From an uncultured delta proteobacterium (GTDB lineage Bacteria > Myxococcota_A > UBA9160 > SMWR01): a stretch of 64,000 nucleotides of DNA. The DNA is taken from positions 320,001-384,000 of the forward strand of contig CAWHTE010000011.1 of assembly GCA_963832165.1 (NCBI GenBank), in the 5' to 3' direction. Positions 22,090-54,246 of the stretch are shown here, in pieces. The notes under the pieces are model-generated. The model ran no database searches. It saw only the letters and a program-made list of their open reading frames with translations, and was not told the origin of the DNA. Made by a program: the position numbers and the translations under genes. Position 1 is the stretch's first letter. Every line of letters starts with the position of its first letter.

Positions 22090-22109
22090 CATCCACGGAT
22101 CCGGGGAAA
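22090..22109. promoter_or_regulatory. Island 20-bp palindromic box upstream of ftsH
   Basis: CATCCA-CG-GATC-CG-GGGAAA. Confidence 0.55.
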
Positions 22110-22186
22110 TCGCGCGTAAAGGGTGCTGAGTCGAGGTGGACTGCCGACTCGGAGAGCTTCAAAACCGCTATCCATAGGGCATTACG

Positions 22187-24131
22187 ATGGCCGACCTGCC
22201 TCCTCGCGATTCGCGGCCCAAGGACTCGAAGCAAGCGATCCCGCGGCCGCGGTCCTGGTGGTTGCTCGCCCTGATCGCCATGTCGGCCAACTATCTGCTG
22301 ATGCGAGCGTGCTTTCCCGAGCCGTCCTCGATCACGCATCCCCTACAGCCTCTTCAAGGCGCAGGTCGCGGCGGGCAACGTCGAGGGTGTCACCAGCCTG
22401 GGCGACTCGATCCAAGGCACCTTCAAGGCGGAGGTCACCTACCCGGCGAAGCCTCTGCCGGCGCCCGAAGTGCCGGAACCGCGCGCGCCAGCATGGTTGC
22501 GGCCCGGTGCGCTCGAGCCACGCACCTCCAAGCGGTTCGAAACCCAGCGGCCGGCCTTCGCCGAGCCGGGTCTCGAAACGCTGCTCGAGGAGAAGGGCGT
22601 GGTCATCCAGGCCCGGGACGAGAGCGGCGGCTCGTGGTTCAAGCTGTTGATCGGATTCGGGCCCACGCTGCTGCTGATCGCCGCCTTCGTGCTGCTCGCG
22701 CGCCGGGCAGCGGCATCCGGCGGGGGCGGGATGTTCAGCCTCGGCCGCAGCCGCGCCAAGCGCTACAGCGAGGAGCAGCCGAAGGTCACCTTCGACGATG
22801 TCGCCGGTATCGACGAAGCCGAGAACGAGATCGTGGAGATCGTCGACTTCCTGAAGAGCCCCGCGAAGTACCAGCGGCTTGGCGGGATGATGCCGAAAGG
22901 CGTGCTGTTGATCGGTGCGCCCGGAACCGGCAAGACGCTGCTGGCGCGCGCGATCGCTGGAGAGGCGGGCGTCCCCTTCTTCAGCCTGAGCGCGTCCGAG
23001 TTCATCGAAATGATCGTCGGCGTCGGCGCGTCGCGCGTGCGCGACTTGTTCCGGCAGGCCCGGGAGGCCGCGCCCTCGATCATCTTCATCGACGAGCTGG
23101 ATGCGATCGGTCGCGCTCGCGGCAGCGGCGCGGGGCTCGGCGGCCACGACGAGCGCGAGCAGACCCTGAACCAGATCCTGACGGAGATGGACGGCTTCGA
23201 CTCTCGCGAAGGCGTCATCGTGCTCGCCGCCACCAACCGGGCCGACGTGCTGGACGCGGCGCTGTTGCGGCCGGGCCGATTCGACCGGCGCGTCGTCGTG
23301 CAGCTGCCCGACCGCGCGGGTCGCGCCGCCATTCTCGAGGTTCACACCCGGCACGTCCCGTTGGCGCCGGACGTCTCCCTCGAGCGCATCGCGGCCGAGA
23401 CACCCGGCCTCGTCGGCGCCGAGCTGCGCAACCTCGTCAACGAGGCGGCGCTGCTGGCGGCGCGCAAGGACACGAGCGCGGTCCGCGCCGAGGACTTTGC
23501 GGAGGCGCTCCAGAAGATCACCCTCGGACCGGTCCGCCACATCCTGCTCAATCCCGCCGATCGCGAGCGCACCGCCTACCACGAGGCGGGCCACGCTCTG
23601 CTCGGGCTGCTCGTGCCCGGCAGTGATCCGGTTCACCGCGTCTCGATCGTGCCGCGCGGCATGTCGCTCGGGGCGACCTGGCAGCTTCCCGTCGACGATC
23701 GGACCAGCTATGGCGAGGACTACCTGAAGGCGCGCATCACCAGCGCCCTCGGCGGCCGGGCGGCCGAGCGGCTCGTCTACGGCGTGGTGACGACGGGCGC
23801 CGAGAACGACCTCCAGCAGGTCACGGAGATCGCCCGCCGGATGGTGCTGCGCTGGGGGATGAGCGAGAAGCTCGGCCCGATCAGCTTCGTCGCGCCGCAG
23901 GACGAGGGCCTGCCGCCGGCCTTCCAGCACCAGCCGTACAGCGAGGCGACCTCAGAGACGATCGACGCCGAGGTCCGCCGCATCGTCGAGGAGTGTCACG
24001 GCGAAGCCGAACGACTGCTGACCGAGCACCGCGAGCAGCTCGAAGCGCTCGCCAAGGCGTTGCTCCAGGCGGAATCTCTCGACGAGCACGAGATCCGAAA
24101 GGCCACCGGCCTGGAAGCAACGCCCGCTTAG
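22187..24131 (+). CDS. ftsH: ATP-dependent zinc metalloprotease FtsH (frameshift near 22337)
   Basis: Walker [32 protein letters not shown]-terminal TM segment in another frame. Confidence 0.92.
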
Positions 24132-24169
24132 GCGCTCGATCGATGTGGGGCTAGCGTCAGCGCCTGGTG

Positions 24170-24334
24170 CTAGTCGATCGCCTCACCGATATCTTCACCC
24201 GCCTCTTCGACCGCGTCACCGGCGTCCTCCGCAGCGTCCTCGACCTTATCTCCGATGGTCTTCTCCCGCTGCGGACATCCCGCCAGCACGCCGATCACAC
24301 CGATCCCCGCCATCACCTTGATCCAGGATCTCAT
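24170..24334 (-). CDS. Small acidic lipoprotein, 54 aa (copy 1)
   Basis: MRSWIKVMAGIGVIGVLAGC-PQREKTIGDKVEDAAEDAGDAVEEAGEDIGEAID; lipobox LAGC; AGGAG RBS; not in the ORF track. Confidence 0.8.
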   Translation of the reverse strand: MRSWIKVMAGIGVIGVLAGCPQREKTIGDKVEDAAEDAGDAVEEAGEDIGEAID

Positions 24335-24364
24335 TTCGTTCTCCTGTTAGGGAGGTAGTTTGCA

Positions 24365-24426
24365 GCGATGCGGGATCCGCTCATATCGTCGACACCACGG
24401 AGAACGCGGACCAGATGCGAGGATTC
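24365..24426 (-). repeat. Copy of an ~60-90 bp noncoding leader element (also at 30304-30392 and 55097-55185)
   Basis: Shared GAATCCTC...TCTCCGTGG-TCGACGAT...C(G/A)CATCGC. Confidence 0.75.
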
Positions 24427-24465
24427 TTCGCGATTCGCTGCAATTTCCACGGTGTCGTCGCTTGG

Positions 24466-24485
24466 TATCCCGAGATCCGGGGATA
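24466..24485. promoter_or_regulatory. Island 20-bp palindromic box
   Basis: TATCCC-GA-GATC-CG-GGGATA. Confidence 0.7.
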
Positions 24486-24541
24486 TCGGCCGTCGCGTCC
24501 GGACGCCCGACGGCAAGCGGAGGCGCTCCGCCGCTGCGAAG

Positions 24542-26907: not shown

Positions 26908-26989
26908 GGAAGAACCTCCCAGCGATTCTCGCGCAGCAAACGGCGTTAATCCGGCCCGGTCGACACGAATCCTTGTTTCTAGGGCGCGC

Positions 26990-27009
26990 GTTCCCCAGAT
27001 CCGGGGTAT
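26990..27009. promoter_or_regulatory. Island 20-bp palindromic box
   Basis: GTTCCC-CA-GATC-CG-GGGTAT. Confidence 0.6.
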
Positions 27010-27093
27010 CGCCGGAGGGGTGAGCGAGAGATCCTCGCCCCGAATCCGGTATCGACGGGCGGATTGTCGATTCTCGACCCGATCTGCGGGGAG

Positions 27094-27209: not shown

Positions 27210-27234
27210 ACTACCCTCCTAACAGGAGTACGGA

Positions 27235-27399
27235 ATGAAATCCTGGATCAAGGTGATGGCGTTTATCGGCGTGATCGGTGTGGTGGCGGGATGTCCGCAG
27301 CGAGAGAACACCATCGGAGATAAGGTCGAGGACGCTGCTGAGGACGCCGGCGACGCGGTCGAAGAGGCGGGTGAAGATCTTGGTGAGGCGATCGACTAA
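27235..27399 (+). CDS. Small acidic lipoprotein, 54 aa (copy 2, inverted relative to copy 1)
   Basis: MKSWIKVMAFIGVIGVVAGC-PQRENTIGDKVEDAAEDAGDAVEEAGEDLGEAID. Confidence 0.8.
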   Translation: MKSWIKVMAFIGVIGVVAGCPQRENTIGDKVEDAAEDAGDAVEEAGEDLGEAID

Positions 27400-27409
27400 C
27401 GCTGTCAAG

Positions 27410-27980: not shown

Positions 27981-28000
27981 CATCCCCAGGAATCGGGATG
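27981..28000. promoter_or_regulatory. Variant island box (perfect arms, non-GATC centre) in a divergent promoter
   Basis: CATCCC-CA-GGAA-TC-GGGATG, with additional half-sites nearby. Confidence 0.5.
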
Positions 28001-28173
28001 GATCTAGGGGATGAACATCCCCAAGATCAAATCGCGGGGCCCTCAAGGAGGACACCCCAGAGGCGCCGACGTTTCGGGAAGCCGTCGTCGCGGCGATCGC
28101 CAACCGCACCGAGAAGGCGCACACGCCTTCGCACACGCCGTCCGTGGACGGCCCAAAAAAGAGAAGTACAACC

Positions 28174-28542: not shown

Positions 28543-28696
28543 AGGCCGCGTAGAGACTCCTCGCGCGGGCGCTCGGCCCGCGCGAAGTGACCCGTCCGTG
28601 CTCTCCGAGCGCGAGAGGGAAGTTCTGCAGCTCCTGACCGAGCTCGAAGGCTGAATCCCCCCGCGACGCCCACGAATCCTCGGCTCCAAACCGCAG

Positions 28697-28716
28697 AATC
28701 CCCAGATCCGGGGATG
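28697..28716. promoter_or_regulatory. Island 20-bp palindromic box upstream of orphan kinase 1
   Basis: AATCCC-CA-GATC-CG-GGGATG. Confidence 0.65.
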
Positions 28717-30303: not shown

Positions 30304-30392
30304 GGTCGCGAATCCTCACTTCTGGTCCACGATCTCCGTGGTGTCGACGATATGAGGCGATCCCACATCGCAGTAGGTTCGAATCGGGAACA
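30304..30392 (+). repeat. Copy of the noncoding leader element
   Basis: Aligns with 55097-55185 and the reverse complement of 24365-24426. Confidence 0.75.
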
Positions 30393-30558: not shown

Positions 30559-30774
30559 ATGCCTGAAATCATCGCAGTCATCCTGGTGACGCTTTGGCTT
30601 CTGGGTCTCCTCTCGTCCTACATGATGGGGGGATACGTTCACGTTCTCCTCGGGATTGCCGTCGCAGTGGTGATGGTCCGCGTGATTCATGAGGAAGCGC
30701 TCGAGCCGTCCGATTTCCTCTGTATGCCGGACGACCCGAGAAGCTCTAACCCGAGCGTCACCGAGTGGAAGTGA
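30559..30774 (+). CDS. lmo0937/DUF5670-family small membrane protein
   Basis: IAVILVTLWLLG-SSYMMGGYVHVLL. Confidence 0.75.
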   Translation: MPEIIAVILVTLWLLGLLSSYMMGGYVHVLLGIAVAVVMVRVIHEEALEPSDFLCMPDDPRSSNPSVTEWK

Positions 30775-30936
30775 ATCGTCGCCCCTTCGGAATCCCCCTG
30801 ACGCCGATCAAGCCTCGGGGGCTCGCTGGGGTGCGGCTCGGCACAGTGGGACGCCAGAGTGGCAGAGCCACCCGGAGGTCGTGCGATGCCTGAGAACCGC
30901 CCCTCGCCGTCATGGCGATTGCGTCGCAAAGAGGAC

Positions 30937-31320
30937 GTGGCATCGACGCAACTTCACGAATCGGCCGACGCGCTGCGCGCCGAGACGCGCGAGATGCATC
31001 GCGCGTTGCGCTCCCTGATCGAGGAGCTCGACGCGGTCGACTGGTACGCGCAGCGTATAGACGCGAGCGACGACGCAGAGCTCGCCGCCGTTCTCGCGCA
31101 CAATCGCGACGAGGAGAAGGAGCACGCGTGCATGGTGCTCGAGTGGATCCGCCGCCACGACGCGAAACTCGACGAGTTCCTGAGGCGGTTCTTGTTCTCG
31201 GACGGCCCGATCGCGAATGACGAAGACGAGAGTGCCAGCGGCAACTCGCGCCGGAGCTCTAGAGAGAATGGGAGCCTGCGCATCGGGAGCCTGCGCGCGG
31301 CAGAAGCGGAGGCGGGATGA
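30937..31320 (+). CDS. Encapsulin-associated ferritin-like protein (Flp/EncFtn) with targeting peptide
   Basis: SLIEELDAVDWY-QR, HNRDEEKEH-LEWIRR; C-terminal GSLRIGSLR. Confidence 0.92.
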   Translation: MASTQLHESADALRAETREMHRALRSLIEELDAVDWYAQRIDASDDAELAAVLAHNRDEEKEHACMVLEWIRRHDAKLDEFLRRFLFSDGPIANDEDESASGNSRRSSRENGSLRIGSLRAAEAEAG

Positions 31321-32138
31321 TCGGTCTGAACCGCGAGCTCGCGCCGATCAGTGAAGGCGGCTGGGCGCGCATCGAGCAGGAGGCGCGCAACGTCCTGCAT
31401 CTGCACCTCGCCGCGCGGCGTCTCGTCGACTTCGAGGGCCCGCTCGGCTGGGAGCACTCCGCGGTCGATCTCGGGCGCGTGGAGCCGCTCGCGGGCTTCG
31501 AGCGCTCGAGAGCCTCGTTTCGCCGGCGAGTCGTGCGGCCGATGATCGAGTTGCGGGTTCCCTTCGAGCTCGAACGCTCGGAGCTCGAGCGGATCGATCG
31601 CGGCGCGGCGAGCGTCGACCTCGATGCGCTGCGCGACGCCGCGCGAATGTTTGCCGCCGCCGAAGATTCTGCGCTGTTCGACGGTCACGAGGAAGCGGAC
31701 ATCCCCGGGCTGATCAGCGGCGCCGCGAATCCGGGCGTCGCGCTCCCGGCCGACCCGGCCCTGCTGCCCGGCGCCGTGGGCGAAGCGCTCGAACAGCTGC
31801 GCCAGGCGGGCGTCGGCGGCCCGTACGGTGTGGCGCTCGGCCCGACGGCGTTCGCCTCGCTCTCGCGCACTGTCGGCGACGGTGGCTATCCGGTCATGAA
31901 GCACCTCCGGCAGCTGATCGATCGCCCGGTGGTCTGGGCTCCGTCGCTGGCCGGCGGGATCGCGGTGAGCCTGCGCGGCGGCGACTTCAAGCTGATCTGC
32001 GGCCGAGACGCCGCGATCGGATATCTGAGCCACGACGAGAAACAGGTCCGCCTCTATCTCGAGGAGAGCTTCAGCGCCGAGCTGACCGGTCCCGAAGCGG
32101 CGGTGCCGCTGCTCTCCGCGAAGAACGGCGACGAATAA
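31317..32138 (+). CDS. Family 1 encapsulin shell protein (Linocin M18 family)
   Basis: LNRELAPIS-W-IE-AR, RRLVDFEGPLG, ELRVPFEL, AEDSALFDG, G-D-IGY, LYLEESF. Confidence 0.93.
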   Translation: MIGLNRELAPISEGGWARIEQEARNVLHLHLAARRLVDFEGPLGWEHSAVDLGRVEPLAGFERSRASFRRRVVRPMIELRVPFELERSELERIDRGAASVDLDALRDAARMFAAAEDSALFDGHEEADIPGLISGAANPGVALPADPALLPGAVGEALEQLRQAGVGGPYGVALGPTAFASLSRTVGDGGYPVMKHLRQLIDRPVVWAPSLAGGIAVSLRGGDFKLICGRDAAIGYLSHDEKQVRLYLEESFSAELTGPEAAVPLLSAKNGDE

Positions 32139-32170
32139 CTAGCGCTCGTCGAGAAGATGGGGAGAGCATC

Positions 32171-32899
32171 ATGAAGTTCGAAATACCTCCGCTGCCGTAT
32201 CCCAAGAACGCGCTGGCGCCGTTCATCGGCGCCGAGACCGTGGAGCTGCACTATGAGAAGCACCACAAGGGCTATCTCGAGAAGCTGAACAAGCTAGTGC
32301 GCGGCGAGCCCGAAGCGGCGCAGAGCCTCGAGGAGCTGATTCAAACCGCGCGCGGCGACGTGTTCAACAACGCGGCGCAGTTGTGGAACCACAACTTCTA
32401 TTGGCTGAGCCTCCAACCGGGCGGCGGAGGCGAGCCGGTCGCGGATCTCGCGAAGCAGGTCGACGAGTCGTTCGGATCCTATGCCGGCTTCCGCGCGCAG
32501 TTCGCCGAGGCCGCGATTGGAGAATTCGGATCGGGGTGGACGTGGCTGGTAAAGGGCGTCGGCGGGCGGCTGCTCGTGTGCAACAGCAACGACGCCGAGA
32601 ATCCGCTGCAGCGCGACCTCGTGCCGCTCGTGACGCTCGACGTCTGGGAGCACGCCTACTACCTGGACTACCGAAACGAACGCAAGCGCTACGTCGAAAA
32701 ATTCCTCGATAACCTGCTCAGTTGGGACTTCGTCGCGACCAATCTGACGCTGGCGCCTCCGGCCGATGAGGGCCTGGACATCCAGGGCGAGGGCAACCCG
32801 GAAGCGGATGCGCGCTATCGCGCGGGAGCGACGGCATTCGCGAAATCGAGTCGCATGAAGCCGGCGGCCAAGCGGGCCGCGCGCTCGCTGCGCAGTTGA
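32171..32899 (+). CDS. sodB: Fe superoxide dismutase with a ~45-aa C-terminal extension
   Basis: HYEKHH, NNAAQLWNHNFYW (Fe-type AAQ), FGSGW, DVWEHAYY. Confidence 0.9.
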   Translation: MKFEIPPLPYPKNALAPFIGAETVELHYEKHHKGYLEKLNKLVRGEPEAAQSLEELIQTARGDVFNNAAQLWNHNFYWLSLQPGGGGEPVADLAKQVDESFGSYAGFRAQFAEAAIGEFGSGWTWLVKGVGGRLLVCNSNDAENPLQRDLVPLVTLDVWEHAYYLDYRNERKRYVEKFLDNLLSWDFVATNLTLAPPADEGLDIQGEGNPEADARYRAGATAFAKSSRMKPAAKRAARSLRS

Positions 32900-33049: not shown

Positions 33050-33130
33050 CTAGCGGCGGAAGCGAGAATATCCCCATCCGCCACCACCGAGCAAGAACAC
33101 CACCAGAAGAACGATCAGTAGAGTTTCCAT
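33050..33130 (-). CDS. 26-aa single-TM Gly-rich microprotein
   Basis: METLLIVLLVVFLLGGGGWGYSRFRR; GAGGTG RBS; box upstream. Confidence 0.7.
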   Translation of the reverse strand: METLLIVLLVVFLLGGGGWGYSRFRR

Positions 33131-33198: not shown

Positions 33199-33218
33199 AA
33201 TCCCCAGGTCCATGGATA
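33199..33218. promoter_or_regulatory. Island 20-bp box (one central mismatch)
   Basis: AATCCC-CA-GGTC-CA-TGGATA. Confidence 0.55.
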
Positions 33219-33518
33219 TCTCATGCAGGAAGCCTGGATTCGAGGCCTCGCTCCGCCGTCCGTGGTTGGTAGGGGCCACATCGAACCAGCGCAGCAGCCT
33301 GGGAAGACTCCCGATCGCTTAGTGCGGGCATTGGTGATCCACGATCTGGGCGCGCTTCAGCTTGAAGACTCTCACCCATTCATTGACCGTCGCGGGCGGA
33401 GCATCCGGGTTGTGCTTGGGTCGGCCGACCGCCGTGTCACGCGCGCCACCTCGAAGAGATCGCGCAACTGAGCGTCGGTCAGCTGGAACTGGCGGGGAGA
33501 ACGCAGGAGTCGCCACAC

Positions 33519-36319: not shown

Positions 36320-36453
36320 GAGATCGCATGCGCCAAGTTATCGAAAGGACCAGCGCGCGGGGATCGCCAGATCGATGGAGATCGTGGCCAGAAGGTGTCG
36401 ATTCGAGGCGCGCGGCAAGTCATCGCCGCAGAATCAGTCCCTTCGGTGCGCAG

Positions 36454-36500
36454 TTCCCCCGGATCTCGGGATACCAACGGTCTCCCGCTCCGAGTAGGGT
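36454..36500 (+). promoter_or_regulatory. Island box + -10-like hexamer
   Basis: TTCCCC-CG-GATC-TC-GGGATA (36454-36473), 21 nt, TAGGGT. Confidence 0.7.
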
Positions 36501-37676: not shown

Positions 37677-38020
37677 ACGACGCGAACGAGAATACTCAAA
37701 TGAACAGGAGACACACGATGATGACCGTCGCCAACCTCGCCAACCTCGCCAATCTCGCGAGCCGCGCGCCGATAGCCTACGAGCTGCTACACCGCATCGG
37801 CCTCGAGCGCCGTCGATCGCGAGCGATTCGCGCCGCGTCGTGCGCGGGATGGATCGGAGTCGGTATGGCCGTAGGTAGCGGACTCACACTGCTCTTGACC
37901 CCTCGAACCGGTGCGGAGATACGCGGACATCTCGGCGAACGCGCCAAGCGCGCGCGCGACTACGTGGTGACCAACGGCATCGAGCCGGCCGGCCGAACGT
38001 CGGCCGCGCAAGCCTCTTAG
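37673..38020 (+). CDS. YtxH-like protein
   Basis: GVGMAVGSGLTLLLTPRTGAEIR. Confidence 0.7.
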   Translation: MNDANENTQMNRRHTMMTVANLANLANLASRAPIAYELLHRIGLERRRSRAIRAASCAGWIGVGMAVGSGLTLLLTPRTGAEIRGHLGERAKRARDYVVTNGIEPAGRTSAAQAS

Positions 38021-39804: not shown

Positions 39805-39868
39805 CGCGCGAGCTGGATTTGAATCCAGTTCGACGTGGTCCGATCGGCGCAGCGCCGTCGTTGGTCGA

Positions 39869-40969
39869 CTACTGGGCCTTCACCGTGAGATCGCCGACCA
39901 CCGAGCGCACGCCATCGGTGGTGCGAGCGACGGTGAGCGCTGTCAGCCGGTCGGGTTGACCGCGGACGGTCCCGGTCAGTCGCGCGACGCCGTCAGCCAC
40001 CTCTACGTCGATGTTCGCGTCGGAGAGCTCCCCGCGCGCTGAAAGGTGCTTCTCGATCGCGTCCTTCACCCGGTCGTCTTTGTGCTCGACCGCGGCGGCC
40101 GATACCTGCGGCACGACCTGGAGATCGTTCTCGACGCTCTTCACGGCGTCGACTTTCCTGACCTCGGTCTCGGCCGCGCGCCGCGCGGCCTCCGTGGGCA
40201 CGGTGCCGAACAGCGTCACGACGCCACCCAGCGTATCGACGTTGATGTCGCGCGCGGGGGTGTCGGAGCTCGCGATCAGCCGGACCTTCGCCGCCGTGGT
40301 GATCCACGCATCCTTCGCCGCCGACGCTGTGTCGGTCTTGGGATCGCTCTTCGCGTCGCGCCAGATCTCGTCGTCGGCCAACGTGTCCGGGCTCTCGATC
40401 TCGCTGGCAACGCGCTTCACGCCGGGGACCGCGCGCGCCACCTCGAGTGCGCGCAGGTGCGCGCTCAGCGTCCGCGCGTTTCCGTCCAGCAGCACGACGC
40501 CCCGGTTCGCCGACTTCACGGCGATCTTGCTGTCGCGCAGCGCGGGATCCGCGTCGAGTCGCTTCCCGACCTCCTTGGAAAGCGCCTCGTCGGCGACGGC
40601 CGCTGTTTCCTGGCGGGGCTTCTCGACGACCTGCAACAGACTTCGCAGCTCGTGCACACCCTTCACACCCCGGGCCGCGCGCTCGGCGCGAGCCTTCTCG
40701 TCGGCACTCGAGACGGTTCCGTGCAGCGTAACTTTGGCATCCGTCGTATCCACGCGGACGGCGGTCGCGCTCACGTCCTCCGCCACGAGGAGCGCCATCT
40801 TGACCTTGGTCGTGATCCAGGCGTCGGGCGCGTCCGCGGCGCTCGAGGGACCCGCCCAGGTCGCGCTGGCGATAAACAGCACAGCCGCGAGCGCGAGTGA
40901 GTGATTCACCATCGTGCGCCCGAGGATGCACGCGATCGAACCCAGCATGATCAAGACAATGACTGACAT
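39869..40969 (-). CDS. Four-BON-domain (OsmY-like) exported protein
   Basis: DAWITTKVK, DEALSKEV, DAWITTAAK, DDRVKDAI, each with a V-L-G core. Confidence 0.88.
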   Translation of the reverse strand: MSVIVLIMLGSIACILGRTMVNHSLALAAVLFIASATWAGPSSAADAPDAWITTKVKMALLVAEDVSATAVRVDTTDAKVTLHGTVSSADEKARAERAARGVKGVHELRSLLQVVEKPRQETAAVADEALSKEVGKRLDADPALRDSKIAVKSANRGVVLLDGNARTLSAHLRALEVARAVPGVKRVASEIESPDTLADDEIWRDAKSDPKTDTASAAKDAWITTAAKVRLIASSDTPARDINVDTLGGVVTLFGTVPTEAARRAAETEVRKVDAVKSVENDLQVVPQVSAAAVEHKDDRVKDAIEKHLSARGELSDANIDVEVADGVARLTGTVRGQPDRLTALTVARTTDGVRSVVGDLTVKAQ

Positions 40970-41030
40970 GAGTGTCTCCCTGATGCGTCGAGCGGGTACA
41001 GCACATGGGGCGTGCGCTCGATGCAGGGAA

Positions 41031-41077
41031 ACGCTAGTCGGGCAGAAAGGGCGCGGATATCCATGGATCCATGGGTA
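41031..41077 (-). promoter_or_regulatory. Island box + -10-like hexamer (BON gene)
   Basis: TATCCA-TG-GATC-CA-TGGGTA (41058-41077), 21 nt, TAGCGT on the minus strand. Confidence 0.72.
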
Positions 41078-41241
41078 CCATGCGCCGAAAGCGCGGATTC
41101 GATCCACGCACTCGCGCCATGCGTGCCGGTGGCACCGAATTTGGTCGTTAGCAGCGCAAGGGCGCGCGTAGCAGTGGTGCGAAGCCTCGTCGCGCTGCAC
41201 GACGATACGAGCGAGACATGACTAAACTACCTTGAGGGTAC

Positions 41242-42609
41242 CTACAACCAGTACTCCCAAGCGCGGGCCAACAGCTCTTTGATGCGCAGGTGGAGCGGAC
41301 GGCGCCGCCATTGCTCCAGCGCGATGGCGTCGGAGGCGGCCAGGTCCTTGGCGAACATCGCCTGCACCTGCTTGCCGAATTCCGCCCCCAGCACCACCGC
41401 ATTCAGCTCGTAGTTGTGCAGGAAGCTGCGCCAGTCGAGGTTGGTCGAACCGACCGTGGCCCATACGCCGTCGACCAGCGCCGTCTTGGAATGCAGGATC
41501 CCTCCGCGCCGTTCGTAGATCTTCACCCCGGCTCGCAGCAGCGGGTCGTAGTGTCTGCGCCCGGCGTGGAACACCAGCCAGGAGTCGGTCTGGCTCGGCA
41601 GGATCAGCTTCACGTCGACGCTGCGCCCAGCCGCACCTTCGAGTGCGGCGAGCAGTTGCGGGTCGGGGACGAAGTACGCGTTGGTCAGGTGCACGCTGGT
41701 CTCGGCGCTGCCGATGGCCGACAGCAGCGTGGCATAGATCAGGCTATAGGGTTCCTCGGGCGAACTGCCGATTGCGCGCACCACCTCCCGGCCAGCGCTC
41801 TCGAGTCGCGGGAAGTAATTCTTCTTCGCGAGCGCATCGCCCTTCTGACTTTCCCAGGTCGCCAGGAACAGCTTCTGCAACTCCGCCACTACTGGCCCCT
41901 CCAGCTGCAGGTCGGTGTCGCGCCACGCCGGGCTGTCCGCGGGCCGGGCGCGCATGCCGTGGCTGGACGAGCCGCCGGAGTAGACGCTGCTGATGTTGAT
42001 GCCGCCCAGGAACGCCGTGCGACCGTCGACGATCAGCAGCTTGCGGTGGTCGCGCTGGTTCAGTTCCCAATCCTTGCGCGCCACCACCGGGTTGACCGGG
42101 TTGAACTCGAGCACCTTGATGCCGCTGGCGGTCATGCGCTCGAAGAGGGCGACCGGCGTGCCGAGGGTGCCTACGCTGTCGCGGATGAGATTGACCTGTA
42201 CGCCTTGGCGCTGCTTGTCGATCAGCGCCTGCGCAAAGCGCTGGCCGACATCATCATCGTCCAGGATGTAGGTCTCCAGGTTGATGTGGTCTCGGGCCGC
42301 CAGAATGGCGGACAGCATCGCCCCGTAGGTGGCGGGGCCATCCTGGAGCAACACCACCCGGTTGCCGGTCGTCAGCGGGCTACCGACGATGGCCTCCTCG
42401 AGCGCCAGGTGGCGGTCGAAGATGCTGGTGTCCTGGCCGCGGCTCGCCAGTCGATCGAGGATGGCCTTGCTCTGCGCTGCCGATAGCGGACCGCGCGCCC
42501 CTTCCAGCTGCGCCGGAGGGCGCGGGTGTCGGGCCAGGTCGGGCACGATGGTCGGCAAGCTGGCGCAACTGGCCAAGCCGGCCAGCCCGGCCAAGCCGAG
42601 CAGGCACAC
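41242..42609 (-). CDS. cls: Cardiolipin synthase / phospholipase D family
   Basis: Two HKD motifs: DHRKLLIVDG and LHSKTALVDG...GSTNLD-RS; lipoprotein-like N-terminus. Confidence 0.88.
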   Translation of the reverse strand: MCLLGLAGLAGLASCASLPTIVPDLARHPRPPAQLEGARGPLSAAQSKAILDRLASRGQDTSIFDRHLALEEAIVGSPLTTGNRVVLLQDGPATYGAMLSAILAARDHINLETYILDDDDVGQRFAQALIDKQRQGVQVNLIRDSVGTLGTPVALFERMTASGIKVLEFNPVNPVVARKDWELNQRDHRKLLIVDGRTAFLGGINISSVYSGGSSSHGMRARPADSPAWRDTDLQLEGPVVAELQKLFLATWESQKGDALAKKNYFPRLESAGREVVRAIGSSPEEPYSLIYATLLSAIGSAETSVHLTNAYFVPDPQLLAALEGAAGRSVDVKLILPSQTDSWLVFHAGRRHYDPLLRAGVKIYERRGGILHSKTALVDGVWATVGSTNLDWRSFLHNYELNAVVLGAEFGKQVQAMFAKDLAASDAIALEQWRRRPLHLRIKELLARAWEYWL

Positions 42610-42642
42610 GGCCAGCCGAGTACGAGAGTGCAGCGGGTGCCC

Positions 42643-43260
42643 TCACGCGCTCAGGGACAACACGCCGAGAACCCGACGCGTGCGCATCAGGCCGACCTTC
42701 ACAGCGCTTGCGCTCTTGCCCGTCTCGCGCGCGATTGCTTTGACGGAACGGCCGTGCGAGTAACGCAGGTGGAATATGTGGCGCGCGGTCGCGGACACAT
42801 TGCGCTGCAGGGAGCGGTTGCACCGCGCCCAGATTCGTGAGGCGTCGACGCTGTCCTCGATCGACGCGACCCGTGCGGCCAGGTCGTGGGCTTCGTCGAG
42901 TGGCGTCATCTCGGGAGAGCGGCGCGAGAAACGGTTGAGGGTCACGTGGCGAGCAATGCCGAGGATCCAGGACAGCAGGCTGGAGCGTCCCTCGTACCGC
43001 TCGATCGAACGGTAGACCTGAAGGAAGACGTCCTGGGCGACGTCCTCGGCCTCGGTCGGGTTGCCGAGCCGACGGAGCGCGAATCCGAACACAGCGGGAT
43101 ACACGCGGCGGTACAGCTCGGAGTAGGCCTGCTCCTCACCCGCCCGCAGTCGAATCACGAGCGCATCGTCCTGCGCGCACCGGCCGCTAGCGCGAGCGGG
43201 GACGGATCGGTCTCCAAGCTGCGTTGACGTCAACTGGATCGATGAAGCGTCGCGGTCCAC
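42643..43260 (-). CDS. ECF sigma-70 factor
   Basis: AEDVAQDVF, WILGIARH (region 2), SVKAIARETG-VK (region 4). Confidence 0.85.
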   Translation of the reverse strand: MDRDASSIQLTSTQLGDRSVPARASGRCAQDDALVIRLRAGEEQAYSELYRRVYPAVFGFALRRLGNPTEAEDVAQDVFLQVYRSIERYEGRSSLLSWILGIARHVTLNRFSRRSPEMTPLDEAHDLAARVASIEDSVDASRIWARCNRSLQRNVSATARHIFHLRYSHGRSVKAIARETGKSASAVKVGLMRTRRVLGVLSLSA

Positions 43261-43306: not shown

Positions 43307-43354
43307 ACGCTAGTCCGGTTGGGGAGACAGCCAGTATCCCCGGATCCGGGTATT
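43307..43354 (-). promoter_or_regulatory. Island box + -10-like hexamer (ECF sigma)
   Basis: TATCCC-CG-GATC-CG-GGTATT (43335-43354), 22 nt, TAGCGT; region near-duplicated at 45199-45252. Confidence 0.72.
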
Positions 43355-43464
43355 ACCGAGTGGCAAGACCGTGGGATTTTTCACGGATCTGCGAGGCGCT
43401 GGAGAGAACACCGAAGCGGTGTCCTCTCCAGCTGGGGGGAGCTGCGCTCGCAAGCGCCGTAGCG

Positions 43465-44089: not shown

Positions 44090-44136
44090 ACCCTACGCCG
44101 AAGGCGAGACCGCCGGTATCCCGGGATCCACGGGAA
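44090..44136 (-). promoter_or_regulatory. Island box + -10-like hexamer (collagen-OmpA)
   Basis: TATCCC-GG-GATC-CA-CGGGAA (44117-44136), 21 nt, TAGGGT. Confidence 0.68.
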
Positions 44137-44162
44137 TCGCGCACTGAAGCCGCTGATTTCCT

Positions 44163-45199: not shown

Positions 45200-45246
45200 A
45201 CGCTAGTTCGGTTGGGGAACGGCCAGTATCCGCGGATCCGGGTATA
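45200..45246 (-). promoter_or_regulatory. Island box + -10-like hexamer
   Basis: TATCCG-CG-GATC-CG-GGTATA (45227-45246), 21 nt, TAGCGT. Confidence 0.72.
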
Positions 45247-45310
45247 CCGAGTCGCGACACCGTGGAGAATGTCGCGATGACGTGCACCGGCGTGCGAATC
45301 GCGACGCCCT

Positions 45311-47619: not shown

Positions 47620-47629
47620 GACTCCTCCT

Positions 47630-48038: not shown

Positions 48039-48085
48039 AAGCTAGTCGCGCACGAAACGCGTCGATATCCACGGATCCGGGGGTA
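48039..48085 (-). promoter_or_regulatory. Island box + -10-like hexamer (glycine zipper-csbD operon)
   Basis: TATCCA-CG-GATC-CG-GGGGTA (48066-48085), 21 nt, TAGCTT. Confidence 0.7.
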
Positions 48086-48489
48086 CCACGCGGGGAAAGT
48101 GTTGATTCGTTGCGGAGAGTGCGGTTCGCAGCCGCTTCATCGCGCCGCGGCAGTGACGCGACCCGGTACGCAGTACGAGACGTCGCGCGGTGCGAGCGAT
48201 GCTGCGCGTCATCCACGCCGCCTTCGCCGACCACCTCGACGCACTCGGTCACTTCCGGGACGTGGCCCACGATCCTCCTCACGTCGACTAGCTCGTGACG
48301 GGGAGCGGCTTCGACCGCCCGCGCTTCGAGGCGCTCTGGGGTGACGTCGCGCGCTTCATCGCCGGCGACGCACCGAGCAGACGGCGAACGAAGGCCCGGC
48401 CGAAGGTGTGAATTGCTCACGGCTGGCGGCGCGTTAGTTCTCGAGACTCCACGAGATCGTCACTGGAACCTCGGACTTCCGCGGGTGAC

Positions 48490-48509
48490 TTTCCCGGGAT
48501 CTGTGGATG
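48490..48509. promoter_or_regulatory. Island 20-bp box
   Basis: TTTCCC-GG-GATC-TG-TGGATG. Confidence 0.6.
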
Positions 48510-48565: not shown

Positions 48566-49016
48566 GATGGACCAGGGGGTGGCGATGAGCGAGTGGGCGG
48601 GCCTCAGCGTAGGCTTCTTCGGCGGGGCGCGAGCGAGCCGTCGATCTCGGATCCATGGTAGGCGCATCCTCTATGTCGACGACGAGCTCTCGATGCGGCT
48701 CGCGGTGGCGCGCGTGCTGCGCGGCGCTGGCGCGGTCTGTCTCGGCTCCGCTACTCACGACCAGGCCGTCGTGCTGCTCGCGTTCGAACCCCGCGTCGAC
48801 TTGGCGATTCTCGATTTTCAGATGCCAGACGGCGACGTGGGCCGTCTGGTGAAACGCCTGCACTGGCAGCGCTCCGCTCTGCCGCTGGTGGGGACGAGCG
48901 GTTCGGATCAGCGCGCCGAGTTCGCCGCGCGGGGAGTCGACCGCTTCCTGCCGAAGCCCTGGGCGCTCGATGATCTGATCCGCGTCGCGGATTGGTCGGA
49001 AGTGCCTGTCAGTTGA
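48566..49016 (+). CDS. Single-domain response regulator
   Basis: ILYVDDE, ILDFQMP, TSG, LPKPW; start uncertain. Confidence 0.8.
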
Positions 49017-49092
49017 ATGCCACGTCTCCGGCGAGTGAAATCCCGCCGTTCCGCGAATCGAGCTGGATCGAATCCACACCTTCCACGCGCGA

Positions 49093-49140
49093 TCTACCGG
49101 GATCTGGGGATACTCGCGATCCTTCCTTCTACGGTAGTGT
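49093..49140 (+). promoter_or_regulatory. Island box + -10-like hexamer (cheBR operon)
   Basis: TCTACC-GG-GATC-TG-GGGATA (49093-49112), 22 nt, TAGTGT. Confidence 0.62.
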
Positions 49141-49267: not shown

Positions 49268-52200
49268 ATGGCCGGCAAGAGAGGTACGACTCGCGCCCCG
49301 CGAATCTCCGGCAGGAAGCGAAAACCTGCCCCCCAGAAGGCGAGTGAGGGCGCGCCGAAGCAGCCCGGTTCGGGCCCCGTTTTCACCGGGTCCGTTTCGG
49401 CGCGCGCACCGGACACGGGGCCTCTGATCGTCGGAGTTGGAGGTTCGGCCGGTTCGCTCTCGCCGCTGCGCGAGTTCCTTGCAGCGATCCCCGCGGACTG
49501 CGGCATCGCATTCGTCGTCGTGAGCCACCAGGCCTCCGCGGGTCACAGCTTGCTCCCTGGGATCCTCGCGAAGTGCACCGAGATGACGGTGCGCGAGATC
49601 GGCGAGGAGACCCGCGTCGAACCGAATCACGTCTACGTCGAGTCGCACGGGCACCCTGTGGCGATTCGAGGCGGGATGTTGAGCCTCGAGCCGATCGCCG
49701 TGCGCAGCGTTCCGCATCTGCCGATCGATCTGTTCTTCCGCGCGCTCGCCCGCGATCAGGGGCGCCACGCCGCCGGCATCGTGCTCTCCGGAACCGGAAC
49801 CGATGGCACGCTGGGTCTCGCAGCGATCCGCGCAGCATCCGGCCTCTCCCTGGTGCAGGATCCCGCGACCGCCGAGTTCGATGGAATGCCGGTCAGCGCT
49901 ATCCAAGCACACGCAGCGGACTTCGTCCTATCGCCGGCGGAAATGCGAGCGCGCCTGCTCGTCCATCGGGATGGGCTCGCCTCGCTGGCGCGCCCAGACG
50001 GCGCGCCCGAGTTCGCAAGCAGCGAGATCGAGAGGGTCCTCGCGGTGATGCGCCATCGCGCAGGCCGCGATTTCTCCGAATACAAGCACGCAACGCTGGC
50101 TCGCCGCATCGCGCGGAGAATGCATCTCCGCGGTATCGACGGCGTGGAGGCGTACGCGCGTTTCCTGGATCAGAGCGACGCCGAGGTCGATGCCCTCTGG
50201 CATGACTGGCTGATCGGGGTCAGCAGCTTTTTTCGCGACCCGGAAGTCTTCCAGGCACTGGAGGCCGCGCTTCCGGACCTGCTCGCCGGGCGCGAAGACG
50301 GCTCTCCGCTGCGGATCTGGGTCCCGGGTTGTGCGACCGGTGAAGAGGCCTATTCACTCGTCATCGTCCTGCTCGAGGTCCTGACAAGGCTGGAGATGCA
50401 CCTGGAAGTGCAGGTGTTCGCTACGGACCTCAACCCCGCAGCGATCCAGGTCGCCCGTGCGGGGCGCTATGCCGAGGGCATCGCGGTGGATGTCGGCGAA
50501 CAGCGCCTCGACCGGTTCTTCTCGAGAGAAGGCGAGCTCCATCGCGTCAAGAAGGAGGTGCGCGATCTCGTGGTCTTCGCGGTTCAAGACGCCCTGCGCG
50601 ACCCGCCCTTTACCCGCGTAGATCTCGTGTCGTGCCGGAACTTCCTGATCTATTTGGAGCCCAGCGCGCAGCGGCGCCTGTTCGGGTCCTTCCACTACAG
50701 CCTGACTCCTGGAGGACTGCTTCTGCTCGGTTCATCCGAGAGCGTCACCGGCTCCGAGTCGTTCTTCGCGCCGCTCGACGGACATTGCAAGATCTTCCGG
50801 CGCAACGACGCTACCGCGCGGCAGCCGACGTTGCGCTTTCCGGCAACACACGGCGCGTACCTAGACGCTGCGGCGGGCGCTCCCTCCGTCGGTGCAAAGA
50901 CCGATCTGGCAAGCCCGCTGCGCAGGGCGCTGGCGGAGCGCTTCGGTCCGCCGGCCGTGCTCGTCGACGAGCGGGGACAGATCCAGCAGATCCATGGGCG
51001 CGTGGGTGCCTACCTCGAGCTGCCAGCGGGGCGAGTCAACGTGAACATCGTCGACATGGCGAGGGAAGGTCTCCGGGCACCGCTTGCCTCGGCGCTTCGC
51101 GAGGCGATCGAAACGGATGGCCAGGTCGCAGAGCGAAGCGTCCGCGTTCTCGTCGAAGGAGACCGGCTCGCGTTGCATGTGAAAGTGGCGCGGCTGCTCG
51201 AGCCGGGCCTCGTGCCACGGCTGTTCCTCGTCTCGTTCGAGCCGGCGGAACGCGGCGCACGGCAGCGCGCGCGGAAGAGCGAGCCGATCGCCGGGGCACG
51301 CAGGGGTCGAGGCGGGGTGAAGCTGGAGGAGGAGCTCCGGAATACGCGGAACGACCTACAAGGCAGCATCGACGAGCTCCAGGCGGCGAACGAGGAGCTG
51401 GCCTCCGCGAACGAAGAAGCGCAATCGGCGAACGAGGAGCTTCAGAGCACGAACGAAGAGCTCCAGACTGCCAAGGAGGAGACGCAATCGCTCAACGAGG
51501 AGCTCCATACCGTGAATGCAGAGCTCACGGAGAAACTCGAAAACTTCCAGCGGGCGACCGACGACCTGCTGAATCTGATGAACAACATCGAGATCGCCAC
51601 CATCTTCCTGGACGAACAGCTGCGGGTGAAGCGCTTCACGCCGCAGGCGCGCAATGTCGCGCGCCTGATCGACGCCGATATCGGGCGTCCGCTGGCCGAC
51701 CTGGCCACAGTCCTCGACTACCCCGACCTTCTGTCGGACGCGGCGAGCGTGATCGAGACCCTTCACGCTTCGGAGACGCAGGCGGCCGCTCCCGGCGGAA
51801 GCTGGTACCTCGTGCGAATCCGGCCCTATCGCACCGCGCGAAACACCGCCCAGGGCGTCGTCATAACATTCGTCGACATCACGGATGCGAAGCGCACTGA
51901 ACGCCTCCAGGCGGCGCGCGTGCTGGCGGAGAGCATCGTGGATGCGGTGCGCGAGCCCTTCCTGGTCCTGGACGGCAGGCTGCGCGTCGTGCGGGCGAAC
52001 CGCGCCTACTACCGGGCGTTCAGGGTCGAGCCGGAGCAGACCGACGGCCGGCTGATTGGAGAGCTCGGAAGTCAGCAGTGGAGCATCCCGATGCTGCGCG
52101 AGCGCCTGGAGAAGGCCCTGCAAGAGGGCACCGGCTTCGACGACTTCGAAGTGGAGCGTGAGTTTCCCCACCTCGGACGACGCAGGATGCTGTTGAACGC

Positions 52201-52312
52201 TCGACCGTTGTCGCCCGAGGATGGCACGGCCGCCGAGCTCGTCTTGCTCGGGATCCAGGAGCTCGGTGGGTCGCAGGCGGAGACGCCGAGAAGCGAGGGA
52301 GGGCGCCAATGA
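49268..52312 (+). CDS. CheB-CheR fusion with coiled coil and PAS domains (CheBR)
   Basis: CheB GGSAG/SH/SGTGTDG; CheR SFFRD, PGCATGEEAYS, SCRN; NEELQS heptads; PAS domains; no kinase domain. Confidence 0.92.
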   Translation: MAGKRGTTRAPRISGRKRKPAPQKASEGAPKQPGSGPVFTGSVSARAPDTGPLIVGVGGSAGSLSPLREFLAAIPADCGIAFVVVSHQASAGHSLLPGILAKCTEMTVREIGEETRVEPNHVYVESHGHPVAIRGGMLSLEPIAVRSVPHLPIDLFFRALARDQGRHAAGIVLSGTGTDGTLGLAAIRAASGLSLVQDPATAEFDGMPVSAIQAHAADFVLSPAEMRARLLVHRDGLASLARPDGAPEFASSEIERVLAVMRHRAGRDFSEYKHATLARRIARRMHLRGIDGVEAYARFLDQSDAEVDALWHDWLIGVSSFFRDPEVFQALEAALPDLLAGREDGSPLRIWVPGCATGEEAYSLVIVLLEVLTRLEMHLEVQVFATDLNPAAIQVARAGRYAEGIAVDVGEQRLDRFFSREGELHRVKKEVRDLVVFAVQDALRDPPFTRVDLVSCRNFLIYLEPSAQRRLFGSFHYSLTPGGLLLLGSSESVTGSESFFAPLDGHCKIFRRNDATARQPTLRFPATHGAYLDAAAGAPSVGAKTDLASPLRRALAERFGPPAVLVDERGQIQQIHGRVGAYLELPAGRVNVNIVDMAREGLRAPLASALREAIETDGQVAERSVRVLVEGDRLALHVKVARLLEPGLVPRLFLVSFEPAERGARQRARKSEPIAGARRGRGGVKLEEELRNTRNDLQGSIDELQAANEELASANEEAQSANEELQSTNEELQTAKEETQSLNEELHTVNAELTEKLENFQRATDDLLNLMNNIEIATIFLDEQLRVKRFTPQARNVARLIDADIGRPLADLATVLDYPDLLSDAASVIETLHASETQAAAPGGSWYLVRIRPYRTARNTAQGVVITFVDITDAKRTERLQAARVLAESIVDAVREPFLVLDGRLRVVRANRAYYRAFRVEPEQTDGRLIGELGSQQWSIPMLRERLEKALQEGTGFDDFEVEREFPHLGRRRMLLNARPLSPEDGTAAELVLLGIQELGGSQAETPRSEGGRQ

Positions 52313-53539
52313 GCTCCAGGAGCCACAGATCGCGGCCGCCCGACTCGCTCCGCGTGCTCGCCGATCAGCGGATGGCGGAGACAGCACCCGTCGATCTGGA
52401 GCGCCTCACGCCGAACGAGATCCAGGCCCTCATCTATGAGCTGGAGCTTCACAAGATCGAGTTGAAGATCCAGAACGAGCAGCTCTGGGAGGCGCAGCGA
52501 GCGACAGAGGTATCCAACGAGCGCTTTCGCCGTCTCTACGATGCGGCTCCGACCGGCTACCTGACGCTCGATTTCGACGGGATGATCGTCGAGGCGAACC
52601 TATCTATTTCCGTCATCCTGAAGACTTCGCGCCAACACCTGATCGGGAGAAAGCTTTCGGAGTTCGTCGTTGCGAATTGCCAGGATCGCTGGCATCTCGC
52701 GCGGCGTGATCTGATCGAGGGCCGGACGCGCAAGGATCTCATGCTGGAGATCGCGCCGGCCGACGGAAGTGCTGTCGACCTCCAGATCGTGGGCACGTCG
52801 GCGGCCGCTACCGAAGCCACGCCGAGAGAGATCCATCTCGTTCTGATCGACGTGACGGAGCAGCACAGGACGGAGCGCGCGTTGCAGGCTGCCGTGGTGG
52901 CGGCGACCCTGGCCGAAGAGAGGGAGCGCCGCAAGCTGGCGGCAGATCTGCACGACGACGCCGGCCAGCTGCTCTCGCTAGCGTCGCTCAAGCTGAACGC
53001 GTTAGGCGAAGCCCGCGAGGTGGAGCGGGGTGCCCGGATGGCCGAGCTGGAGGATCTGCTCGTGGTGATCCGCCGCCGGATCTCTTCGCTGAGCTTCCAG
53101 CTGAGCCCTCCGCTGCTTCACGATGTCGGGCTGATCGCGGCCCTCCAGTGGCTCGCAGAGGATCTGGAGGCCAGCCATGGCCTCTCGGTGAAGATCATCG
53201 AGGAGCATGAGTTGGACCTCGATGAGAACTCGCGCGTCACGTTCTACCGGGCGATTCGCGAGCTGCTCCTCAACGTGGTGAAGCACTCAGGTGTCAAGGA
53301 GACCCGCATCCGGGTGTCACGGGAGGGAGCGATGGCGCGGATTGCCGTGGAGGACGGTGGTGTCGGTATGCCCCCGAGAGCCAAGCGCCCGCGGCTTCGG
53401 ACTGCTGGCGCTGCGCGAGCGAGTGGAGCAGCTGGGCGGGTCGCTCGAAACCCGCAGCACTCCGGGCAGCGGAACCACGGTCGTGGTCAGCCTTCCGATC
53501 CGTCTCTCCCTACCCAACCTCGAAGGGGGTGCAAGATGA
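52309..53539 (+). CDS. PAS + HisKA_3 (NarX/UhpB-type) histidine kinase (frameshift near 53390)
   Basis: ELELHKIEL-QNEQL, ERERRKLAADLHD, NVVKHS, EDGGVG; GFGLLALRERV in the alternate frame. Confidence 0.88.
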
Positions 53540-54183
53540 TGACCCGTATTCTGCTCGTGGACGATCATGAGTTGATGCGCGAGGGATTGCGCTCGATTCT
53601 CGAGGGCGAAGCCAACGTCGAGATCGTCGGCGAAGCCTCGAGCGGCCGCGAGGCCGTGGTGCTCTCGCGCACGCTCGAACCGGACGTGGTGGTCATGGAC
53701 GTGGGCATGAGCGATCTGAACGGAATCGATGCCACCCTGCAGATTCGACGCGAGTTCCCCGACGTCCAGGTGATTGCACTCTCGAGCCATTCGGACAGCC
53801 GCTATGTGAGTGCCATACTCGAGGCGGGCGCATGCGGCTACGTGCTCAAGGCGAACGCCTACGCCGACCTTCGCAAAGCGCTGCAAGCTGCCCGGCAGGG
53901 GAAGAACTACCTCTGCGCGGAGGTCACGAAGGGGGTGGTGGACGCCTCCCTCCACGGACCTCGGAACGGAGTCGACCCGTCCGTGCTCTCCCCGCGCGAG
54001 AGAGAGGTTCTGCAGCTGCTGGCCGAAGGCCAGAGCTCTCCGCGGATCGGGAAGCGCCTGTTCATCGCCACCAGCACGGTCGAGACCCACCGGCGCAGCA
54101 TCATGCGCAAACTCGAGATCCACAGCGTCGCGGATTTGACGAAGTGGGCGATTCGCGAAGGGCTGACTCAACTCGAAGCGTGA
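53536..54183 (+). CDS. NarL/FixJ-family response regulator (REC + LuxR-type HTH)
   Basis: LVDDH, VMDV, YVLK, LSPREREVL...TVETHRRSIMRKL. Confidence 0.93.
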   Translation: MMTRILLVDDHELMREGLRSILEGEANVEIVGEASSGREAVVLSRTLEPDVVVMDVGMSDLNGIDATLQIRREFPDVQVIALSSHSDSRYVSAILEAGACGYVLKANAYADLRKALQAARQGKNYLCAEVTKGVVDASLHGPRNGVDPSVLSPREREVLQLLAEGQSSPRIGKRLFIATSTVETHRRSIMRKLEIHSVADLTKWAIREGLTQLEA

Positions 54184-54226
54184 ACCCGGCCCGGTCGACG
54201 ACCGAATCCGCGCTTCCGCAGCGCGT

Positions 54227-54246
54227 TATCCGCAGATCCGGGGATA
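54227..54246. promoter_or_regulatory. Island 20-bp box upstream of orphan kinase 2
   Basis: TATCCG-CA-GATC-CG-GGGATA. Confidence 0.68.

Follow-up and report, generated by a model that had tools for sequence, protein, structure and literature searches.

In a gene island of an uncultured delta proteobacterium (Myxococcota_A), a 43-bp directional promoter element recurs 18 times, and it is probably the tandem site by which a NarL-type response regulator encoded in the same island (53536-54183) activates genes of a general-stress type. As judged from sequence comparison, the element is likely the on-switch for the stress genes of a sensing module's DNA-binding regulator, and it recurs in related uncultured bacteria of the Myxococcota with the same three-gene module. 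The window analyzed here is a stretch of 64,000 nt (assembly GCA_963832165.1, contig CAWHTE010000011.1, positions 320,001 to 384,000), and window positions given below refer to this whole stretch. Its source genome (G000; 5.5 Mb, 11 contigs with C1, C4, C7 and C11 among them, 89% complete) was compared with further genomes (G-numbers) and loci (L-numbers). At its right end the island encodes a CheB-CheR-PAS protein (CheBR in the following), a PAS/HisKA_3 kinase and the NarL-type regulator, and its GC content is 0.62-0.68 across 24-56 kb as compared to 0.67-0.73 in the flanks.

Structure of the element

In the first-pass annotation the element was described as a 20-bp palindromic box. This box is real, but the actual element comprises 43 bp and is directional, consisting of the box and a partial copy of it (GAATCC..TTC) located 22 bp before the box. 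In a pool of 57 sites from G000 and seven relatives, which were oriented from the upstream flank alone, GAATCC is found at -22 to -17 and TTC at -11 to -9 relative to the box, so that both repeat its left arm and centre at a 21-22 bp shift. The palindrome is imperfect, with a strong promoter-proximal arm (GGATR), a strong GATC centre and a variable distal arm.

In the hexamer that follows the box, an A at position 2 and a T at position 6 are kept, matching the two key -10 bases of sigma-70 promoters. With the orientation taken from the upstream flank, TANNNT was present downstream of 24 of the 57 sites and on the opposite side of none. A metagenome scan, the pattern of which contained the upstream site and the box and no -10, yielded 49 loci with 41 distinct elements, and 28 of these exhibited TANNNT at +20 to +22 (11 of 24 families when the elements were grouped by their downstream sequence). 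All fetched loci and G000 together provided 164 distinct elements of at least 22 bits, corresponding to 84 non-redundant ones with less than 62% identity. Of these, 65 contain xANNNT at +21/+22, including 34 with TANNNT, compared to 1-6 at 15 control offset pairs. This arrangement, a site at a fixed distance before the -10 combined with a weak -35, is that of class II activator-dependent sigma-70 promoters. All seven TAGNNT hexamers that had been reported initially do lie 21-22 nt past the box on the strand given for them, and the class II geometry proposed on their basis gains support, as the fixed -10 was also recovered in elements found without requiring one. A hexamer at -12 to -7 would place the box centre at -43.5 or -44.5 and the upstream site at about -65. 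Given a primary box and its partial upstream copy, tandem binding appears to be a better model than a single dimer site.

No conserved -35 was found between box and hexamer in the pooled elements, about half of which retain no more than -11A and -7T of the hexamer. This points to weak promoters that need an activator. It appears quite improbable that the regulator instead represses over the -35 region, or that the element itself is recognized by an alternative (ECF) sigma factor. The last bases of the box do overlap the place expected for a -35 hexamer, and an ECF sigma factor is encoded in both element-bearing islands of G000 (in the window and on C7). Besides the missing -35, however, the ECF gene is itself located behind an element, and no close homologue of it (at most 42% identity) was found in five element-rich genomes. 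On these comparisons the ECF sigma factor is no shared binder candidate. Use of the element as a divergent promoter was ruled out, as a hexamer peak on the reverse side of the pooled elements was sought and none was seen.

Occurrence in the window and in the genome

Altogether 18 elements were counted in the window (Table 1) in place of the roughly 15 repeats previously claimed. All 15 palindromes of the earlier list carry the 20-mers described for them and 14 stand as sites, while four elements had been overlooked, namely 24384 (-), 30333 (+), 36362 (-) and 55126 (+). In leave-one-out scoring, 13 sites reached 20-31 bits, whereas 26990 scored 11.2 and 27981 only 4.3 bits. The latter was rejected, as its half-sites are jumbled and it remains below 15 bits with the extended model. 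The region 27981-28030 contains oddly spaced CATCCCC and GGGGATG half-sites as well as a perfect 7-2-7 inverted repeat near 28007-28022, and no standard element. With a relaxed box pattern the window matched 25 times on both strands combined, at 13 sites, vs. 0.70 ± 1.02 in 100 shuffles.

Although about 77% of the region from 22 to 55.6 kb is coding, all 18 elements are intergenic and none lies within a gene of the gene map. The idea that all boxes are situated upstream of genes is correct for most of them, which precede a co-oriented gene, but the box at 22090 points away from ftsH and that at 24466 into the 3' end of a gene. If a 26-aa peptide ORF (for 33199) and idh (for 22090) are counted, the next gene is co-oriented for 17 of the 18 elements. 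Ten elements possess TANNNT and five xANNNT at +21/+22, one has its hexamer at +20 and two exhibit no -10.

Table 1. Coordinates of the 43-bp elements and of selected genes in the window (hexamer offsets are relative to the box).
Feature	Position	Strand	-10 hexamer	Context
Element, box 22090-22109 + upstream partial copy	22090..22132	-	none	points away from ftsH; island left edge; probably truncated
Variant element	24384..24426	-	CAAACT +21	before small lipoprotein gene 24170-24334
Orphan element, box 24466	24443..24485	+	none	no co-oriented gene; points into a gene's 3' end
Degenerate element, box 26990	26967..27009	+	GATCCT +20	copy of post-regulator promoter
Element, box 28697	28674..28716	+	GATCAT +22	directly behind remnant of the regulator's 3' end; before sensor-less kinase 28810-29661
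Variant element, box 30333	30310..30352	+	TAGGTT +21	before DUF5670-EncFtn-encapsulin-SOD
Element	33199..33241	-	GAGAAT +21	before 26-aa hydrophobic peptide ORF 33130-33050 (-)
Variant element	36362..36404	-	TAACTT +21	before DUF697 gene; back-to-back with 36454
Element, box 36454	36431..36473	+	TAGGGT +21	before holin_3_6, small membrane protein and YtxH genes
Element	41058..41100	-	TAGCGT +21	before 4xBON (OsmY-like) and AI-2E genes
Element, spacer one base longer	43335..43378	-	TAGCGT +22	before ECF sigma and cardiolipin synthase genes
Element	44117..44159	-	TAGGGT +21	before OmpA/collagen lipoprotein 43465-44001
Element	45227..45269	-	TAGCGT +21	before unknown exported protein and single-BON gene
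Element	48066..48108	-	TAGCTT +21	before glycine-zipper protein, downstream small genes / nitroreductase
Element, box 48490	48467..48509	+	CACGCT +22	before stand-alone receiver gene
Element, box 49093	49070..49112	+	TAGTGT +22	before CheBR-kinase-regulator cassette
Element, box 54227	54204..54246	+	GACCCT +21	21 nt past regulator stop; before sensor-less kinase 54306-55091
Variant element, box 55126	55103..55145	+	TAGGTT +21	before lmo0937-family gene 55364-55519
Predicted target operon DUF5670-EncFtn-encapsulin-Fe/Mn SOD	30559..32899	+		assigned by domain families
Predicted targets ECF sigma, cardiolipin synthase, 4xBON, AI-2E transporter	38017..43260	-		assigned by domain families
Stand-alone receiver (REC)	48585..49016	+		recurs beside cassette in relatives
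CheB-CheR-coiled coil-PAS-PAS protein	49268..52312	+		no receiver, no kinase domain
PAS-HisKA_3-HATPase kinase	52309..53538	+		PF07730 + HATPase; adjoins regulator
NarL/FixJ-family response regulator, predicted binder	53536..54183	+		REC + GerE HTH (PF00072 + PF00196)

The supposed confinement to one island could not be upheld, as G000 contains a second island and a third cassette, and dispersed sites occur in G048 and G191. With a window-trained matrix and a threshold of at least 19 bits, 13 matches were found in the island vs. nine elsewhere in the 5.5-Mb genome, of which seven are located in the paralogous island (C7:4486-25717) and the others at C4:485271 and C7:609735. A model built from other genomes only likewise ranked both islands and the C4 cassette at the top of the G000 scan. 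In the paralogous island (C7:1-26 kb) the cassette is 81-92% identical and the promoters are duplicated; the third cassette (C4:479-485 kb) encodes a regulator of 65% identity and has one element ahead of its CheBR gene. Just past this cassette, at about C4:488000-492000, the GC content falls to 0.35-0.45, which suggests foreign DNA.

It is very improbable that the copies arose just through local duplication, or that they serve as a recombination site used in building the island, and have no regulatory role at present. Several promoters do form duplicated families (24384/30333/55126, 36454/44117 and 41058/48066), a regulator remnant precedes the element at 28697, two elements are orphans, and promoters of the window recur in the C7 island. 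Nevertheless, the 84 elements of less than 62% identity have kept arms, GATC centre and the -10 at its fixed distance despite varying spacers, and the 21 matches in G048 are distributed across more than ten contigs and precede differing stress-type genes. An Rfam search of the window from 20 to 57 kb gave no match at gathering score.

Two simpler search patterns were abandoned. A strict palindrome pattern matched two of 61 genomes and was too narrow, and a loose one was noisy, with many of its lone matches being 8-bp tandem repeats. A Dam methylation switch at the GATC centre was discarded as well, since PF02086 was not found in G000 (89% complete) and GATC occurs at the expected frequency.

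The regulator as candidate binder

The NarL-type regulator at 53536-54183 had already been named as the possible binder, and it appears to be a well-founded candidate, as the element closely tracks its clade. Among the first 80 regulator loci, a box of at least 14 bits was present in all eight loci with at least 60% regulator identity, each of which included CheBR and kinase; the 72 more distant loci contained only matches of 14.2-15.3 bits, in six cases. An element of at least 15 bits in the 43-bp model was found in the regulator locus in 20 of 20 cases at 68% identity or more, in four of 12 at 53-66% and in none of 68 at 51% or less. In a tree of 55 regulators (more than 180 aa, at least 43% identity) all 21 element-positive rows belong to one clade of 29 rows (SH-aLRT 98), and none was among the 26 rows outside of it. 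Most rows of this clade share the helix AT[ST]TVE[TS]HRR. Furthermore, an element is located within 250 nt of the regulator's stop codon in 18 of 32 rows of at least 53% identity, with the top score among 400 random 500-mers, taken as chance level, being 6.4 bits.

A survey of the order included 192 genomes, of which 26 were regulator-positive at E 1e-60 (a frameshifted copy in G102 was missed). A strict element pattern occurred in six of these 26 vs. two of the 166 regulator-negative genomes, with kin among them not being independent. In a profile search of 149 of the 192 genomes, 15 contained a match at E ≤ 1e-3, and 11 of these 15 were regulator-positive. Neither regulator nor element was found in two genomes of the same genus, G001 (95% complete) and G003 (90%). 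In a sample of the phylum, two of 149 other genomes exhibited single matches (E ≤ 0.002); as the G216 locus, with a 21-bit site, has no match to island genes, a spread beyond the order is unsupported.

The elements are distributed across many contigs in G048 (21 matches, more than ten contigs) and in G191 (16 matches). The genes examined behind them encode DUF3309, transglycosylase-associated, YflT-like, EipA-like and hemerythrin proteins, and those behind elements in other genomes CBS, CsbD-like, DUF883, ECF and sigma-54-activator proteins. Such dispersed elements before stress-type genes would be consistent with a regulon acting in trans. Receiver-less sigma-54 activator genes are located behind elements at L212:6188-7093 and L032:618-1541 (G119 and G042), and these proteins might possibly link the regulon to sigma-54 stress genes.

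Several observations weigh against an assignment of the element to this regulator. Four of the 15 genomes with strong elements are regulator-negative: G192 (79% complete) and G026 (78%) contain an element with no regulator found, G159 (93%) has a single element, which adjoins a receiver gene on a contig of 2.7 kb, with no regulator found, and G027 (93%) contains only broken regulator copies along with two elements with an intact TAGGCT. CheBR was not found at E 1e-40 in any of these four genomes. Within the clade, eight of the 29 rows (seven genomes) do not have an element in the locus, and G144 and G145 share the helix residues, yet exhibit no strong element genome-wide. Three of the 18 post-regulator elements belonged to the training set, related genomes and many duplicate elements cause the counts to overstate independence, and two of the 18 window elements come without a -10. 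In addition, the three clade members of G000 (window, C7 and C4) are indistinguishable as to which one is acting, and the co-occurrence survey covered a part of the transcription-factor families.

The four genomes without an intact clade regulator or CheBR could suggest that the element is an activator site of another trans factor, for example of the CRP/FNR type, and that the cassette is merely a target travelling with the island. The central 16 bp of the box can also be read as 5-6-5, which is the spacing of CRP/FNR sites. An FNR-like motif is present at 17 points of the Burkholderia lxa island (PMC3721108). We consider this explanation improbable, though somewhat less so than the two discussed above. 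In contrast to a free N6 spacer, the GATC in the centre belongs to the best-conserved parts of the element, and its arms ATCC/GGAT do not resemble TGA-N6-TCA, so that the box does not have the form of a CRP/FNR site. Moreover, the same-genus genomes lacking the cassette also lack the element, the element is attached to the 3' end of the regulator gene in 18 of 32 rows, and among the DNA-binding genes of the island only that of the regulator recurs beside elements.

A co-evolution of helix and motif was considered and is unsupported: no variant motif was seen beside distant regulators (G050, G040, G145, G098, G144, G130 and G190) in a best-score scan with inspection of the flanks by eye, and no de novo motif search was run.

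The sensing cassette and the proposed mechanism

The regulator at 53536-54183 has intact phosphorylation residues (D9/D10, D55 and K105) and the helix IATSTVETHRR. Its nearest solved structures are VraR, NarL and DevR (DevR PDB match E 1e-27), and among the matches listed it remained below the NCBIfam cut-offs for NarL, NarP, GacA, RcsB, UhpA, FixJ, EvgA and ErdR. With a receiver and a GerE/LuxR HTH in the regulator and an adjoining HisKA_3 kinase, the pair has the composition of NarL/FixJ two-component systems, and the gene order CheBR-kinase-regulator is conserved in relatives. In this assembly the kinase frame runs into the regulator via a one-base shift near 53390. A kinase-regulator fusion was dismissed, as contigs of relatives have one base fewer at 53389-53391 and the kinase of the C7 paralogue is a separate 409-aa gene with a normal end; the frame merger is probably an indel error in the assembly. 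Further frameshifts were observed in ftsH (22187-22470) and in the C7 regulator copies (C7:1400-2040 and C7:5123-5197). Some of these, including that of the kinase, are probably long-read indel errors, and one C7 cassette copy looks decayed.

The coiled coil of CheBR contains four EE-x-x-[ST]-[AT] heptads, which resemble chemoreceptor methylation sites. At C11:444800-448600 of G000 a frame of 1249 codons comprises contiguous homologues of the CheB-CheR-PAS protein and the kinase and is followed by a receiver, with no element there; this contiguity supports a functional link between the two proteins.

If the regulator is indeed the activator, the PAS/HisKA_3 kinase would phosphorylate it at D55, one dimer would occupy the box (centre about -43.5 or -44.5) and a second dimer would bind cooperatively to the weaker upstream site at about -65. 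This pair of dimers would then recruit RNA polymerase with the housekeeping sigma factor to promoters that have no good -35. Positive feedback would come from the elements ahead of the cassette and directly following the regulator (predicted positive autoregulation). With less confidence, CheB-CheR-PAS might set the activity of the kinase via reversible methylation of its own glutamate-pair coiled coil.

Sensor-less HisKA-HATPase genes are found directly behind the post-regulator element, both in the window (28810-29661 and 54306-55091) and in the C7 island (C7:2225-2938 and C7:3568-4437), and similar pairs of kinase and receiver are located behind elements in G005 and G006. A feedback or cross-talk module appears possible for these kinases.

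The predicted targets in the island appear to be of a general-stress type. The block contains genes for FtsH, a metallophosphoesterase, two sensor-less kinases, receivers, DUF5670/lmo0937 peptides, EncFtn, encapsulin, Fe/Mn SOD, DUF697, holin_3_6, YtxH, AI-2E, 4xBON (OsmY-like), cardiolipin synthase, ECF sigma, OmpA-collagen and nitroreductase. The label rests on Pfam and NCBIfam names, on the known SigB and RpoS regulons, and on csbD as a direct target of EcfG.

Comparison with known systems

The lux/tra boxes of quorum-sensing LuxR proteins are 18-20-bp inverted repeats with a GATC centre near -42, and they are bound by a GerE-type HTH. The system described here differs by a phosphorylatable receiver instead of an autoinducer-binding domain, by other arms and by a second upstream site. 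SigB and RpoS are alternative sigma factors of general stress responses. Unlike these and EcfG, the predicted switch here would be a response regulator at a housekeeping-type -10, without a stress sigma factor. The families found behind the element include OsmY, CsbD, YflT, YtxH, transglycosylase-associated and DUF883 proteins, and they overlap with the target families of these sigma factors. In the case of EcfG, csbD is a direct target (PMC7083833).

The closest parallel is DevR/DosR of Mycobacterium tuberculosis, which is also a NarL-family regulator with stress-survival targets (predicted ones here). As described in PMC3177182, DevR uses a conserved primary and a degenerate in-phase secondary box at -42.5/-63.5, both of which are needed for activation. 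The element resembles this in having a primary and a degenerate site in helical phase, about two turns apart, at about -43.5/-65. It is, however, no Dev box, as the logo differs and DevR is only a distant family match to the regulator. The Dev half-site GGGACT points inward according to the same source, whereas here GGAT points outward around a GATC centre. Further differences are the input via CheB-CheR-PAS and a PAS kinase, the one-directional element and the targets of OsmY, CsbD and encapsulin type. The lxa locus of Burkholderia cenocepacia is likewise an island, of about 50 genes, with one motif at 17 intergenic points and a few more copies elsewhere in the genome (PMC3721108). That motif is of the TGA-N6-TCA (Anr/Fnr-like) form, whereas the element described here is unrelated to it and tracks a NarL-type regulator.

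A sigma-54 twin of the island

A further island of G000 (C1:478000-495000; L243) encodes homologues of EncFtn, encapsulin, SOD, cardiolipin synthase, holin, YtxH and two BON proteins, and neither a CheBR-kinase-regulator cassette nor an element was found in it. It contains four sigma-54 -24/-12 sites vs. 0.24 expected, with none in the window and C7 islands, and it encodes two REC-sigma54-activator-Fis (NtrC-type) proteins. Among the 41 4xBON loci of the order, an element of about 20 bits or more is located upstream in six. Fifteen loci, 11 of them in regulator-negative genomes, lack an element and possess a sigma-54 site 100-160 nt upstream. In the remaining 20 loci neither kind of site is found at this position; one of them, that of G057, has a weak element, and its sigma-54 site is farther away. 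In the BON tree five element-type rows and G102 form one clade (100/100) among sigma-54 rows. This tree is midpoint-rooted only, and no claim is made on the order of the change between sigma-54 site and element.

It is tempting to combine these observations, and the resulting picture must be regarded as tentative and rather unlikely as a whole: an unreported stress-response route, in which methylation of a receptor-less CheB-CheR-PAS protein serves as timer or memory and sets a PAS kinase, and a mobile regulon that amplifies itself is driven by the NarL-type regulator of this kinase. This regulon would have taken over genes that are run by sigma-54/NtrC-type activators in sister islands, so that one cell would hold two independently wired copies of a stress kit.

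The surprise is limited by the fact that the transcription logic, in which dimers of NarL type occupy tandem sites near -42/-64, is already known. New are the operator, the regulator clade, the unusual input and the sigma-54 twin. In the open-access literature no paper was found on general stress gene switching in Myxococcota outside the model myxobacteria, nor on what stand-alone CheB-CheR-PAS proteins control, and a search with five 12-mers of the box returned, among the matches listed, none on bacterial regulation by title. For both of these questions the finding provides a predicted set of operator, regulator, kinase and targets. A type of sensor about which little is understood would thereby gain its first testable output, and the sigma-54 twin island offers an example from nature of how a regulon is rewired inside a single genome.

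Minor observations

To the left of the island, a single long frame (15303-20069) contains CHASE, GAF, kinase, receiver and CorA domains and probably represents two genes merged by a frameshift. A tRNA-Pro gene (13314-13389) is located 9 kb left of the island, away from its edge. Small unannotated peptide or lipoprotein ORFs are present behind elements at 33050-33130 (-), 24170-24334 (-) and 27235-27399 (+), the last two of which are near-duplicates.

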